Shown here piece by piece: positions 325 to 8,248 of a stretch of DNA of 8,248 nt. Location of the stretch: the IMG/VR virus record IMGVR_UViG_2671180849_000023; one strand, given 5' to 3'. Under the pieces are notes generated by a model. That model was not told the DNA's origin. It worked only from the letters and a program-made list of their open reading frames with translations, and ran no database searches. A program made the position numbers and the translations under genes. Origin of the DNA: a virus. Taxonomy: Duplodnaviria; Heunggongvirae; Uroviricota; Caudoviricetes. Position 1 is the first letter of the stretch, and the number at the start of each line of letters is the position of its first letter.

Positions 325-378
325 TTCCTGATTATTTAACTTTTATTCGCTTTCAGGATAAACGAAATCTGATATACA

Positions 379-2196
<1,818 letters not shown>

Positions 2197-3966: not shown

Positions 3967-4475
3967 GCAGCCCTCACAATATAATTAAAGGCGATGTTAC
4001 GGGAGCGGGTTTCAGATGCTGTGCGAACTGAGCGAGATGCGTCGAATGTCCAGTTATAAGCGCCATAACCCTCAATAATTGCGGCTTCCTTTAGACCTGT
4101 AGATAATACTTGCCCATGTTGACTAAATGGCCCTGAACTAAGTACGTCTCTAAAAAGCTGGGTACGCCCAAAAGAACCAACAATATTCTGAATTGCATCA
4201 TTCTGTGCAGATAATAAGTTACGACCAGAGTCAATCCCGCGCCCATCATCCCAGCCACGAATAAATTCACCGCGTAAATCTGGTAATTTTAATGTTGGGT
4301 AAGCCTTTGCCAGATTTGGGTACTTTTCAGAAGAAAATACTGCTCCGTTACATTTTAGCCACCCCGTTGGCGGAGTGGCGGAAGGCCACGGAACAGGCAC
4401 ACCAACGGGTAATGCCGAACCTTCTCCCAAACCAAGGTTTTCGAGAGCCGTTTTCAAACGAGCAAATGGCATCAT
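3963..4475 (-). CDS. Alternative tail-fibre C-terminal variable (receptor-binding) cassette, silent orientation; becomes fused to the constant N-terminus at 2200 after inversion
   Basis: The minus-strand ORF begins [18 protein letters not shown]…, so the crossover-site-encoded [11 protein letters not shown] lies at its N-terminus. The rest (153 aa) differs from the plus-strand variable domain. The ATG at 4475 lies outside the right crossover site and may be fortuitous. Confidence 0.65.
   Translation of the reverse strand: MMPFARLKTALENLGLGEGSALPVGVPVPWPSATPPTGWLKCNGAVFSSEKYPNLAKAYPTLKLPDLRGEFIRGWDDGRGIDSGRNLLSAQNDAIQNIVGSFGRTQLFRDVLSSGPFSQHGQVLSTGLKEAAIIEGYGAYNWTFDASRSVRTASETRSRNIAFNYIVRAA
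4421..4456. repeat. Right inversion crossover site, 36-bp perfect inverted repeat with 26-bp core at 4422..4447
   Basis: cttctcccaaaccaaggttttcgagagccgttttca; exact reverse complement of 2468..2503. Lies 46 bp upstream of the invertase start. Confidence 0.8.
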
Positions 4476-4501
4476 TCCTGCTTTTGTCAGGGAGATCTAC
4501 C

Positions 4502-5056
4502 ATGCTTATTGGCTATGTACGTGTGTCAACAAATGACCAGAACACAGATCTACAACGTAATGCGCTGAACTGTGCAGGATGCGAGCTGATTTTTGAAGAC
4601 AAGATAAGCGGTACAAAGTCCGAAAGGCCGGGACTGAAAAAACTGCTCAGGACATTATCGGCAGGTGACACGCTGGTGGTCTGGAAACTGGACCGGCTGG
4701 GGCGCAGTATGCGGCATCTTGTCGTGCTGGTGGAGGAGTTGCGCGAACGAGGCATCAACTTTCGTAGTCTGACGGATTCAATTGATACCAGTACCCCAAT
4801 GGGGCGCTTTTTCTTTCATGTGATGGGGGCCCTGGCTGAAATGGAACGAGAACTGATTGTTGAACGAACAAAAGCTGGACTGGAAGCTGCTCGCGCACAG
4901 GGACGAATTGGTGGACGTCGTCCCAAACTTACACCAGAACAATGGGCACAAGCCGGACGATTAATTGCATCAGGAGTTCCGCGCCAGAAAGTTGCGATTA
5001 TCTATGATGTTGGCGTATCGACTTTGTATCAGAGGTTTCCGGCAGGAGATAAATAA
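4502..5056 (+). CDS. pin: Serine DNA invertase of the Hin/Gin/Pin/Cin family
   Basis: 185 aa from ATG 4502, with GGGAG Shine-Dalgarno 7 nt upstream. MLIGYVRVSTNDQNTDLQRNAL… carries the catalytic serine motif VRVSTNDQ, and …DTLVVWKLDRLGRSMRHL…SLTDSIDTSTPMGRFFFHVMGALAEMERELIVERT…GRIGGRRPKL…VSTLYQRFP follows Hin/Pin closely. The track ORF extends upstream to 4292, but the conserved N-terminus sets the start at 4502. Confidence 0.85.
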   Translation: MLIGYVRVSTNDQNTDLQRNALNCAGCELIFEDKISGTKSERPGLKKLLRTLSAGDTLVVWKLDRLGRSMRHLVVLVEELRERGINFRSLTDSIDTSTPMGRFFFHVMGALAEMERELIVERTKAGLEAARAQGRIGGRRPKLTPEQWAQAGRLIASGVPRQKVAIIYDVGVSTLYQRFPAGDK

Positions 5057-5254
5057 AGACACAGCTCGTCGAATTCAAGAACGTGTGAGCCAATCTCATG
5101 ATGATTCATTATTTTCACATAGAGTCAATGACAAAAAACGGCTGCAAGGTAAACCACAACGATGGCTTTGTTAATTGATAGCGGTTTTGGTACTAAATGA
5201 TACAAATTAAAATGAATATCCTAGTGAATTACAACAATTTCAGGAGGAAATAGT

Positions 5255-5467
5255 ATGCCAAGAAAAACGCTAGAAAATTTGGTAAATGTTGCACGTCAGA
5301 CTCAGGAAATAGCGGATAAGAGAAGCCGTTTTTTCGGGTATCTTGAACAGCATGGCTTGAAGAGGAATGAGGATAGTGCTCACCTTTTTGCTATGCATTT
5401 ACGGTTGCAACACAATGAAAGAGATAATCTTGTCCATGAACTGATGTCCGGATTACATCATAAATAG
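5255..5467 (+). CDS. Hypothetical small protein (70 aa), no recognisable family
   Basis: ATG 5255 preceded by a strong Shine-Dalgarno AGGAGG (5242..5247, 7-nt spacing). AT-rich, convergent with the 114-aa/343-aa operon. Function unknown. Confidence 0.5.
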   Translation: MPRKTLENLVNVARQTQEIADKRSRFFGYLEQHGLKRNEDSAHLFAMHLRLQHNERDNLVHELMSGLHHK

Positions 5468-5501
5468 TGCATCATTCGAGCAAGAATATTATAAGACAAT
5501 A

Positions 5502-5524
5502 AACCAGCCAAAAACTGGCTGGTT
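5502..5524. terminator. Possible bidirectional hairpin terminator between convergent genes
   Basis: Stem CCAGCC (5504..5509), loop aaaaact, stem GGCTGG (5517..5522). On the minus strand it is followed by a T-rich run (TTTATTGTCTTAT); the plus-strand U-tract is weak. Confidence 0.35.
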
Positions 5525-5551
5525 GAACGTTAACTTTTTGAATTTAATCAA

Positions 5552-5896
5552 TTAACTTTGGTGTATGTCTTGGTAAGTCTCATCCGTCAGAGCCAATTTC
5601 ATGCAAATATCATCGTTAAGACTGACAATATCTTCGATCAGTTTATTGATCTCGAAATCGTTAAGTTTTGATACTGTTGCTTGAACTCGCCCCTCATCGC
5701 CAGTGGCATCAAACTTAGTCAGTTCCTTACATAATTCATCGAACCTGCTTTGTAAGGCATTTGGAATATCATCGGCTGTTTTAAGATGCCCAAGGCTAAA
5801 AACATACGAATTAATCAAGCGTTCTTGAATACTTCCATGGCCCGCAAGAGTAAGTACTGCAGTATGAAATTTTTCATGTGCATACTTTAAGGACAT
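5552..5896 (-). CDS. Hypothetical protein (114 aa), second gene of the cargo operon, no recognisable family
   Basis: ATG 5896 with GGAG Shine-Dalgarno at 5904..5907 (7-nt spacing), 51 nt downstream of the 343-aa gene on the same strand. AT-rich. No motif I can assign. Confidence 0.6.
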   Translation of the reverse strand: MSLKYAHEKFHTAVLTLAGHGSIQERLINSYVFSLGHLKTADDIPNALQSRFDELCKELTKFDATGDEGRVQATVSKLNDFEINKLIEDIVSLNDDICMKLALTDETYQDIHQS

Positions 5897-5947
5897 ATCT
5901 GGTCTCCGTGACTTATAACCTCAACCGACATAAATGGGGTTAAGTGA

Positions 5948-6979
5948 TTATTCTGAAACAATAGTGTTGAACTGACCTATAGAAACAGCACCCTTTTCAA
6001 TTACCTCTAAGTAACTGATTTTAATATGAGAGTTGTTTGACAAAGCGTCAACAATAGCTGTCAACTCATCTTGGGTGATAACATCAGCTGAAGCTTTGAT
6101 TGTGAAGCATTCGTCATTAGAGACCCTAACAACGTTAATATTAATATCCTGATTTGTTGGCCCTGTTCTGGTTACACCTTTGATGGAAAATATATCAGTT
6201 CGTTCTTTACGTTCTCTATCTACAGATTGTCGGCTGTTGTAGGTATTTAGGTCTTGTCGTGTTAGTTTCTCATTTCCTAAAGTCACGGTTTCGACAGTAG
6301 GATCAGCAGCTAATTGCTTCACTAAAGCACTTTTACCTGCTTGTCCGTGACTAGTAACTTTATCGCTAATCGCTGATTTCCCATAGATTTTATAATCTAA
6401 TGTTGCTTCTATGGCTTTGTTTATGCCATCGGATGTGGTTTTTGCAATTTCAACCTGCCGATCAGTTGCATGTCTTTCTGTTACGGCATTTTCTGAAATG
6501 TAGTGATAACCACATGTGCTGGCCGCGCCAACCATTGTGATTATAACAAGCATTTTCTGCCAGCCGTTCAGTCCAGACATAGTATCTCGCAAAAAATCAG
6601 TTACTGCGTTGATGATCTTGTCAGTGGTGCCTTCCGCATCACTAGAACCTTCGCTAATTTTAAAATTTATATCAAGTCGTTGCTTGTCTTCATTAGTCAA
6701 GCGTTGAAGATTCTGCGATCCGTATCGTATGGTTGCAAACGCCCGCTGTATCTCCTCGTTGAGCATTGACATACCAAACAACATTGCTGATGTAATTGAT
6801 GAATGATACCGCTCTCCTTTTACATTTATGTCTAAGGATGGCCAGCCTGCAAACTTTACGTTAGGGAAAATAAACTCTTTAGAATCAAGCCCCTCTCGGG
6901 CTTTCATTTCTTCCAGAAAGTTTAGAAAATCATCTTCACTACGGATCAGAAAATCAATCGAATCCACAGTAGCTTCCAT
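5948..6979 (-). CDS. Hypothetical protein (343 aa), first gene of the cargo operon, with one hydrophobic segment (aa 143..161); no recognisable family
   Basis: ATG 6979 with AAGGA Shine-Dalgarno 7 nt upstream; a long uninterrupted ORF. GC counted at 20/60 in each of 5941..6000 and 6001..6060, against 38/60 in smpB (7981..8040). Confidence 0.7.
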   Translation of the reverse strand: MEATVDSIDFLIRSEDDFLNFLEEMKAREGLDSKEFIFPNVKFAGWPSLDINVKGERYHSSITSAMLFGMSMLNEEIQRAFATIRYGSQNLQRLTNEDKQRLDINFKISEGSSDAEGTTDKIINAVTDFLRDTMSGLNGWQKMLVIITMVGAASTCGYHYISENAVTERHATDRQVEIAKTTSDGINKAIEATLDYKIYGKSAISDKVTSHGQAGKSALVKQLAADPTVETVTLGNEKLTRQDLNTYNSRQSVDRERKERTDIFSIKGVTRTGPTNQDININVVRVSNDECFTIKASADVITQDELTAIVDALSNNSHIKISYLEVIEKGAVSIGQFNTIVSE

Positions 6980-7034
6980 ATGAATATCCTTATTAAATTC
7001 TCATTCGGTTACTGTTTATTGTTGACTGATCAAT

Positions 7035-7063
7035 AAAAAAGCCCGCAATTTGCGGGCTTCTTT
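7035..7063 (-). terminator. Rho-independent terminator downstream of ssrA (minus-strand orientation)
   Basis: Stem GCCCGCA (7041..7047), loop att, stem TGCGGGC (7051..7057). On the minus strand the hairpin is followed by TTTTTTATTG; on the plus strand by the weaker TTCTTTC. Confidence 0.55.
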
Positions 7064-7188
7064 CACACTTGAGAGCCGCGGCTCCTTTGCGTATCCTTTT
7101 TTGTCTCCTCACCGTCTGGTCGGTGTCCTGCTGAGACTGCTAACTTCCTGTTTTTGTTGGTGTTGTCCTTACACCGTCCAATCATGAT

Positions 7189-7551
7189 TGGTGGAGCTGG
7201 CGGGAGTTGAACCCGCGTCCGAAATTCCTACATCCTCGGTACTACATGCTTAGTCAGTCTTTACATTCGCTTGCCAGCTGCGGACGGACACGCCACTAAC
7301 AAACTAGCCTGATTAAGTTTTAACGCTTCAACCCCAGGCAGGGCTTCCACGCGATCTCTTTTGGGTTTGACCTCTCTTGATCCCCGTCCTAAGAGCGGAG
7401 GCTAGGGAGAGAGGGCTCTAAGCAGGTTATTAAGCTGCTAAAGCGTAGTTTTCGTCGTTTGCGACTATTTTTTGCGGCTTTTTACGAGGCCAACCGCCCC
7501 TCGGCATGCACCTTGGGTTTCGCAAATCCCGTCGAATCCAGAATCAGCCCC
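7189..7551 (-). ncRNA. ssrA: tmRNA (transfer-messenger RNA, 10Sa RNA), 363 nt
   Basis: Reverse complement begins GGGGCTGATTCTGGATTCGACGGG and ends …GGGTTCAACTCCCGCCAGCTCCACCA (tRNA-like acceptor/T-arm with encoded CCA). The internal tag reading frame is at 7430..7462. Confidence 0.95.
7430..7462 (-). other. tmRNA tag-peptide reading frame (resume codon GCA through stop): ANDENYALAA*
   Basis: Minus-strand codons GCA AAC GAC GAA AAC TAC GCT TTA GCA GCT TAA, read directly from the sequence. This is the proteolysis tag of E. coli and close relatives. Confidence 0.9.
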
Positions 7552-7765: not shown

Positions 7766-8248
7766 TTAACGGTGGGCGTTTTTCATGATACGTGCTTTAT
7801 CCACCTGCCATTCGCGTTCTTTGATATCTGAACGTTTATCGTGCTGTTTTTTACCTTTGGCGACGCCGATTTTCACTTTGCACCAGGCATTTTTCCAGTA
7901 CAGGGAGAGCGCCACTACGGTATAGCCTTCTCGATTGACGCGACCGTACAATGAGTCCAGTTCGCGCTGGTTGAGAAGTAACTTGCGGGTACGGGTAGGA
8001 TCGCACACCACATGCGTGGAGGCCACGGCCATTGGCGTGATGTTAGCGCCAAACAGAAATGCCTCTCCGTCACGCAGAAGGACGTAGCTGTCGCTGATAT
8101 TGGCTTTTCCTGCGCGCAGGGATTTAACCTCCCAGCCTTGCAGGGCAAGTCCCGCTTCGAACTCTTCTTCGATAAAGTATTCGTGACGGGCGCGCTTGTT
8201 AAGCGCGATGGTCGCTGAACCAGGTTTATGTGCTTTTTTCTTCGTCAT
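7766..8248 (-). CDS. smpB: SsrA-binding protein SmpB (160 aa, complete)
   Basis: ATG at the window edge (8248..8246), stop at 7766. [56 protein letters not shown]… is the canonical SmpB sequence, upstream of and co-oriented with ssrA as in E. coli. Confidence 0.95.

Follow-up and report, generated by a model that had tools for sequence, protein, structure and literature searches.

A prophage-end slot beside ssrA in Escherichia coli exchanges its cargo and here holds a candidate anti-phage cassette

The closest described relative of the locus reported here is e14 of Escherichia coli K-12, whose Lit and McrA are textbook examples (PMC12529663). In e14 a low-GC defence gene, mcrA, lies between pin and att (attR), and lit adjoins intE at the other end. 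We analysed a stretch of E. coli DNA of 8,248 nucleotides (nt; IMG/VR record IMGVR_UViG_2671180849_000023, hereafter the window), which contains the right arm of an e14-family prophage remnant lodged in the 3' end of ssrA, the gene for transfer-messenger RNA (tmRNA). In E. coli, the integration hotspots listed for defence-carrying elements include the tmRNA locus (PMC10121019). The remnant and e14 have a common gene order, jayE/J, ymfQ, stf, tfa, tfa, stf, pin, cargo and att; at the DNA level they are 96% identical across ymfQ/stf, 89% across tfa/stf and 90% across pin, and their homology ends 2 nt past the pin stop. They differ in integration site, e14 being integrated in icd, and in cargo, which in e14 is the type IV restriction enzyme McrA and here consists of three uncharacterised open reading frames (ORFs).

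An earlier note on this DNA, made from the sequence alone, had proposed that the AT-rich block between the pin stop and the ssrA terminator is a cargo cassette that can be swapped, like those at phage defence hotspots, and had asked beforehand for an alignment with related elements. We conclude, with a probability of roughly 80%, that the interval is an exchangeable e14-type slot beside ssrA whose present cassette is inferred to be an anti-phage or exclusion module. The exchange of content in this slot, taken by itself, we regard as very probable.

With the whole window as query, we searched 5426 complete genomes of E. coli and compared pairwise five loci that match the flanks and lack the interior. 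In E. coli carrying the J/gp47-ymfQ-stf-tfa-pin arm beside ssrA, conservation is 89-99% over pin and the following 29 base pairs (bp) on the left and over terminator, ssrA and smpB on the right, and the interior is replaced by unrelated gene sets, as it also is in e14 with mcrA. The alignment thus supports the proposed swappable module. Homology to the window stops at 5085 in loci L011, L012 and L014 and resumes at 7032-7036, in an A-run at the foot of the terminator; the right break at 7035/7036 is common to L011, L012, L013 and L015. Loci L013 and L015 have a truncated pin, with the left break inside the gene. The exchangeable unit is therefore 5086-7035, and the bounds given in the earlier note held to within 29 bp on the left and 1 bp on the right. 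Conserved flanks around a variable interior, many of whose occupants are recognised anti-phage systems, make this slot a hotspot in the sense used for P2 and P4.

A cargo-free query (baseplate J/ymfQ, pin and 6 kilobases (kb) of the ssrA side, with the parts required within 4.5 kb) located this prophage end beside ssrA in at least 87 of the 5426 genomes, and pin is 89-92% identical in prophages with other cargos. Our cargo tally covers 60 listed rows of these 87 genomes. The most frequent occupant (28 of the 60) combines PD-T4-3, a GIY-YIG gene, with a cytosine methyltransferase and a type II endonuclease, followed by the three-ORF block of the window (20). Less frequent are a type IV restriction enzyme (a DUF262 protein) with AbiTii (7 rows), PD-T4-3 (GIY-YIG) with a CapH/CapP-like pair (HTH/ImmA-like) and BRO-N (3 rows), and a single protein of 502 amino acids (aa; 2 rows). 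A PifA-like KAP-family NTPase, found in one fetched locus, is a sixth variant and brings the number of cargos in the slot to at least six. Across all 5426 genomes the three-ORF block occurs in 46, at 99% identity or more and always as a single unit.

PADLOC matches identify most of these alternative cargos as defence genes: PD-T4-3 for the GIY-YIG protein (4.7e-140), REase_II and MTase_II for the type II pair (1.5e-233 and 3.8e-230), mREase_IV, a type IV methyl-directed restriction enzyme, over the full length of the DUF262 protein (E = 0), AbiTii (4.4e-33), PifA for the KAP NTPase (7.4e-79), and CapH/CapP-like assignments for the HTH/ImmA pair. Recognised defence genes are thus present in five of the six other cargo types, e14's mcrA included. 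The 502-aa protein (L015 4108-5616, strain TUM11352) has no PADLOC match and is the sole slot occupant in at least two genomes.

The composition of the interval agrees with its exchange. GC content is 38.4% over 5057-7036 and 49.7% in the remaining window, and the lowest-GC 1980-bp window of the whole sequence begins at 5072. An unconstrained two-boundary maximum-likelihood segmentation of GC content, run on a 10-bp grid, placed the boundaries at 5050 and 7040 (38.2% versus 49.8%; log-likelihood gain 41). GC content at third codon positions (GC3) is 0.34-0.37 in the three cargo ORFs, 0.57 in smpB and 0.62 in ymfQ. Whole-window GC, segmentation and GC3 together confirm the AT-rich block. The GC of the cargos lies in all cases under genome GC, at 0.40-0.47, and that of the e14 slot is 0.35.

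The same composition might be expected if the block were core phage DNA whose codon usage is AT-rich, such as regulatory or late genes belonging to an e14-type phage, and not exchangeable at all. The neighbouring tail-fibre and tail-fibre-assembly genes are themselves rather AT-rich (GC 0.44-0.49, GC3 0.34-0.48; pin GC 0.50). Low GC alone is therefore no proof of foreign origin, and the contrast is sharpest against pin, ymfQ, the insertion sequence (IS) element, ssrA and smpB and weaker against the tail-fibre genes. However, close prophages with flanks as similar as those described above hold wholly unrelated genes in the interval, and the block persists in remnants from which practically all phage functions are gone. 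These observations refute the core reading, to which we give practically no credence.

We then considered how the content of the slot might be exchanged. The same cargo-ssrA junction is joined to three prophage backbones (e14-type, P2-type and lambdoid stf/tfa), with the joints in or near pin. In FDAARGOS_1287 the junction sits on a P2-type tail module and homology begins at window position 4421; in strain 042 and about 18 related genomes it sits on a lambdoid side-tail-fibre remnant whose recombinase is a frameshifted hybrid, and homology runs from 4582-4585. Since homology breaks at or inside pin, unrelated prophages seem to recombine with invertase genes as their anchors. The cargo edges have no direct or inverted repeats beyond short chance-like matches, and no pix-like site is present there. 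Content would thus be swapped by homologous recombination within the conserved flanks, in pin to the left and in the ssrA trailer, ssrA and smpB to the right, which is the simplest and most likely account of the breakpoints.

Alternatively, Pin could excise pin and cargo site-specifically, and the cassette would then move as a discrete circle. A RefSeq record labelled as a circular plasmid, NZ_CP148395.1 (2637 bp), consists of exactly pin and the three cargo genes (window 4457-7072), and the genome it belongs to is without another copy of the block. The ends of this record, however, lie just beside the pix repeat (record position 22 corresponds to window 4457) and at window 7072, in the duplicated trailer, and the 21 bases before record position 22 are the usual pin-upstream sequence of other loci. 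Ends at repeats are where assemblers break and falsely circularise contigs, so that the record is most likely an assembly artefact. Nor do its ends match the cargo boundaries, whose lack of repeats and pix-like sites likewise argues against excision. We consider movement as a circle highly improbable and retain exchange by recombination in the flanks.

The right edge of the slot leads into the attachment site. The terminator that marks it has a folding energy of -19.3 kcal/mol on the ssrA strand (z = -4.0), and a U-run comes after it. Between the window and loci L011, L012, L013 and L015 its GC stem is constant and its loop varies (ATTT, ATAA, ATTA, ATCA), a pattern that fits selection on terminator structure rather than on sequence. 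The earlier note had placed the end of the island at this terminator. That position stands as the edge of the cargo, but the true end of the island is the att core inside the ssrA 3' end.

Strain XH990 shows this structure: a relative some 39 kb long lies intact at the corresponding site, with the integrase at the far end. There the prophage comprises a lambdoid early region, HK97-type head genes, Mu-type tail and baseplate genes, pin and the same three ORFs, followed by ssrA. A copy of the last 31-46 bp of ssrA recurs at L003 7672-7717, beyond the integrase and a pair of AAA ATPase and RloB genes, so that direct repeats of the ssrA 3' end stand on either side of the element. A second copy of the ssrA trailer, 91% identical, adjoins ypjA at the far end of the island array in the same strain (L003 483-639), and a trailer of the type found in the window abuts ssrA in 2569 of the 5426 complete genomes. 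From this repeat layout, the trailer in the window would be a prophage-borne replica of the native one that restores the 3' flank of ssrA after integration.

Other loci in the relatives were noted in passing. In XH990 the AAA ATPase and RloB pair lies between the integrase and the ssrA 3' repeat (L003 7837-9788) and is possibly AbiL-like, judging from the annotated names. Its place beyond the integrase is the position of lit in e14, which suggests a second cargo slot in the e14-type phage family. A KAP-family NTPase gene on the opposite strand between the Q antiterminator and holin genes (L003 20820-22151) is likely another accessory insertion. The relative in strain A29 is internally deleted, and a search for its integrase end met core genes.

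We therefore picture the block, in view of the relatives, as an accessory slot at the right end of a temperate prophage of the e14 family. Members of this family combine an early region of lambdoid type with a baseplate and tail of Mu type and a tail-fibre segment that Pin inverts, and an IS3-family insertion has reduced the one here to a remnant. The cassette comprises two convergent units, orf343-orf114 on the minus strand and orf70 on the plus strand (Table 1), with a terminator-like hairpin between them that is predicted to fold in both directions (-16.2 kcal/mol on the plus and -15.2 on the minus strand; z = -4.9 and -3.5). orf70 has only three protein clusters, all at least 95% identical, and orf114 has six, all at least 84% identical; word-based homologue searches for both returned near-identical sequences and no informative contexts. 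Both are absent from all other contexts of orf343 homologues that we examined. The AlphaFold2 model of orf114 was discarded as unusable at a predicted local distance difference test (pLDDT) of 50. Across Pfam, PADLOC, NCBIfam and PHROGs, the sole family match of the three ORFs is that of orf343 to phrog_6191, and a permissive-threshold Rfam scan returned nothing credible inside the cargo.

Table 1. Positions of the features of the window (numbered from its first nucleotide).
Feature	Position	Strand	Remarks
IS3-family element	~376-1632		orfA 1253-1600 and orfB 387-1133, both -
Invertible P segment	2477-4447		tail-fibre C-termini and 2 tail-fibre assembly genes, between inverted 28-bp crossover sites
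pin (pinE-type serine DNA invertase)	4502-5056	+	left slot flank; Resolvase 3.6e-51, HTH_7 6e-13
Conserved 29-bp stretch after the pin stop	5057-5085		last homologous bases before the cargos diverge; from junction alignment
Exchangeable cargo cassette	5086-7035		1950 bp, 38.3% GC
orf70	5255-5467	+	70 aa; AGGAGG upstream; near-orphan
Bidirectional terminator-like hairpin	5502-5524		between convergent orf70 and orf114
orf114	5552-5896	-	114 aa, all-helical; 52 bp downstream of orf343; near-orphan
orf343	5948-6979	-	343 aa; predicted bitopic membrane protein; phrog_6191
Rho-independent terminator downstream of ssrA	7036-7063	-	right slot edge
ssrA trailer	7037-7188	-	152 bp including the terminator; probably carried by the prophage
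att core	7189-7219	-	last 31 nt of the ssrA 3' end; the intact prophage has a second copy at its integrase end
ssrA (tmRNA)	7189-7551	-	tag ANDENYALAA; ARAGORN and Rfam
smpB	7766-8248	-	

The family of orf343 is large. With a word-indexed search we found 76 clusters, all from Enterobacterales, and with a hidden Markov model search at least 848 representatives at 50% identity with E <= 0.001, 502 of them with E <= 1e-10. The AlphaFold model (pLDDT 76) begins with an alpha/beta domain (residues ~1-135) and a helix (139-153), continues through a disordered stretch into a helical hairpin, and ends in a beta domain that structure comparison of the model predicts to be an OB-fold. A hydrophobic 19-residue segment at about 139-161 is conserved across the family, with a Kyte-Doolittle hydropathy (KD) of 1.4-2.2 and, in most relatives, 1.6-2.2. 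A profile of the protein run against PDB sequences returned only noise (E >= 0.25), and searches of the literature under the protein accession and the PHROG number gave nothing on the family and no named system that matches it. In a metagenomic contig, L028, an apparent replacement of orf343 by two ORFs (124-1156) turned out to be the same block with a frameshift that splits the gene into 112 and 210 aa; it is the only disrupted copy of the block that we saw. One distant homologue lies on a 1.1-kb contig without neighbours.

The genomic contexts of the homologues bear on the function of orf343. At nine loci in at least seven distinct contexts, an orf343 homologue lies directly downstream of cI, in the same orientation and before N, and this is the most frequent context of the family. 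It comprises two Yersinia prophage contexts, two metagenomic contigs with one homologue, three metagenomic contigs of near-identical gene content with another homologue, Escherichia phage phi458 and the PhiR12 phages. The cI-N position, which holds rexAB in lambda and bstA in BTP1, has been described as a lysogen-expressed hotspot of abortive infection (Owen et al., 2021, PMC8585504). Like bstA, the orf343 homologues there are single genes co-oriented with cI. Only the position is common to them, however: there is no sequence relationship to either system, Pfam searches of orf343 and 44 relatives gave isolated noise and no KilA-N-like domain as in BstA, and orf343 has one predicted membrane helix and an OB-fold.

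Homologues also occur at the tail-fibre/att end of an Enterobacter lambdoid prophage, in a Mu-tail prophage after the tail fibres (L027), where the gene stands beside acetyltransferase and pyruvyl transferase genes, and in a Klebsiella siphovirus prophage between the tail chaperone and the tape measure. The closest relative outside E. coli, 82% identical, is a Cronobacter homologue (L009 and L010, 8001-9023) that adjoins the ends of two different mobile elements, a P2/186-type integrase end in one strain and a CP4-57-like island ending in cbeA/cbtA in the other. The right-hand neighbours are identical in both strains, so that the site is probably another integration hotspot. Given these settings, orf343 appears to behave as a self-contained, lysogen-expressed accessory gene.

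The cI-N contexts and the company that orf343 keeps in the slot make a role in anti-phage defence or superinfection exclusion its most likely function; we put the odds of an anti-phage function as such at about even. We propose that the cassette is a lysogen-expressed anti-phage or superinfection-exclusion module whose convergent units would share the bidirectional terminator. Its active component would be the membrane-anchored 343-aa protein, which stands alone elsewhere, and orf114 and orf70 would be lineage-specific additions.

Several points weigh against this proposal. None of the three ORFs matches a Pfam, PADLOC (PADLOC-DB 2.0.0, 2023; E <= 0.1) or NCBIfam model, and 45 diverse members of the orf343 family gave no consistent Pfam or PADLOC match, only four isolated weak PADLOC matches of single members. 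Since the cargo here matches no recognised defence system, the defence role is read from position and homologue contexts only, that is, guilt by position. The structural match of orf343 is only to a generic OB-fold, and its own hydrophobic segment is borderline for a transmembrane helix (KD 1.41). Promoter-like matches in the cargo are no more frequent than chance would give. The case for recombination in the flanks comes from breakpoints, not from observed events. Finally, prophage-end slots also hold non-defence genes of lysogenic conversion: the L027 homologue has acetyl- and pyruvyl transferase genes as neighbours, and BRO-N and a DinI pseudogene are present in other cargo variants.

This last point leads to a different function for an equally exchangeable cassette, in which orf343 would be a lysogenic-conversion or envelope factor acting in surface modification, in serum or stress resistance, or in colonisation. 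The ends of temperate phages do carry such genes, the protein looks membrane-anchored, and its OB-fold is as similar to OB domains that bind sugars or metals (pertussis toxin B, SilF) as to those that bind DNA; the absence of defence-model matches would fit as well. Against this stand the recognised defence genes in most other cargo types of the slot and the preference of the family for the rexAB/bstA position. Moreover, conversion genes that modify receptors are themselves a form of superinfection exclusion, and the two readings overlap to that extent. A conversion or envelope role seems to us rather unlikely, and we favour the anti-phage or superinfection-exclusion module.

The remaining features of the window belong to the prophage arm and its truncation. 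Leftward of ssrA lie, in order, the terminator hairpin, the three unannotated ORFs, pin, the tail-fibre and assembly segment and the Mu gp48/ymfQ gene. The pin orthologues in RefSeq relatives carry the annotation pinE. The pix crossover repeats that bound the P segment occur only at 2477-2504 and 4420-4447 (two matches against none expected by chance), and the segment, which is 89-96% identical to its e14 counterpart, encodes the Pfam domains Caudo_TAP, Collar and Gp53-like_C. The 21 bases upstream of pin (4436-4456) are unlike those of most related loci, which have CGTTTATGAAAATGCAGAAAT; this difference fits a P segment that lies here in the opposite orientation. The IS3-family element truncates the prophage arm just upstream of ymfQ. 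The Rfam model of the small RNA isrC matches 1446-1568, within the orfA region of this element, at 150 bits, and the model thus seems to describe part of the IS3 element. At the left end, a fragment at 1-324 (42% GC) resembles the C-terminal part of acyl carrier protein (ACP) S-malonyltransferase or of the malonate decarboxylase epsilon subunit (fabD, 7.6e-7). The first 375 bases have no match in the best-matching complete genomes, and the source strain therefore differs there.

That such a slot swaps its content is expected by specialists. The comparison adds a candidate of 1.95 kb with exact bounds, taken from a slot in which most other occupants are recognised anti-phage systems, and links it to a widespread unannotated family that in lambdoid phages is found at the classic rexAB/bstA position. 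Should orf343 protect against phage, it would represent one more single-gene defence family; if it does not, the cassette would reflect ordinary turnover of prophage accessory genes. Our most far-reaching suggestion is tentative, with the chances slightly against it: orf343 may be the founding E. coli example of the unnamed phrog_6191 family, a single-gene, membrane-anchored anti-phage system acting by abortive infection or by a block to DNA entry from lysogen-expressed slots, and the pin-att interval may be an uncatalogued hotspot with at least one further candidate, the 502-aa protein of L015.

Accessory genes also follow the invertible tail-fibre module at other prophage ends. The right end of Mu carries gin followed by com/mom, and SfV-type Shigella phages carry O-antigen modification genes near attP. 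These arrangements are alike in placing host-interaction genes after an invertible tail-fibre module at the end of the prophage, and the ymfQ/stf part of the window has 95-96% DNA identity to SfV, SfI, SfII and SfIV. They differ in cargo, which is DNA modification in Mu and O-antigen glucosylation in the Shigella phages.

The hotspots of P2- and P4-type elements (2022, PMC9122126; Moura de Sousa et al., 2026, PMC13586616) are alike in that a short interval between conserved core genes exchanges anti-phage systems between near-identical elements, with some occupants unknown. In the literature searched, we found only general papers on hotspots and none that describes as such the interval between pin and att in e14-type prophages. 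The present case differs from P2 and P4 in phage family and in slot, the interval here lying between a DNA invertase gene and att. If orf343 proves protective, e14-type prophages, which are common in E. coli, would join P2 and P4 as a platform for the exchange of defence genes, with an invertase gene and the tmRNA gene serving as the recombination anchors.

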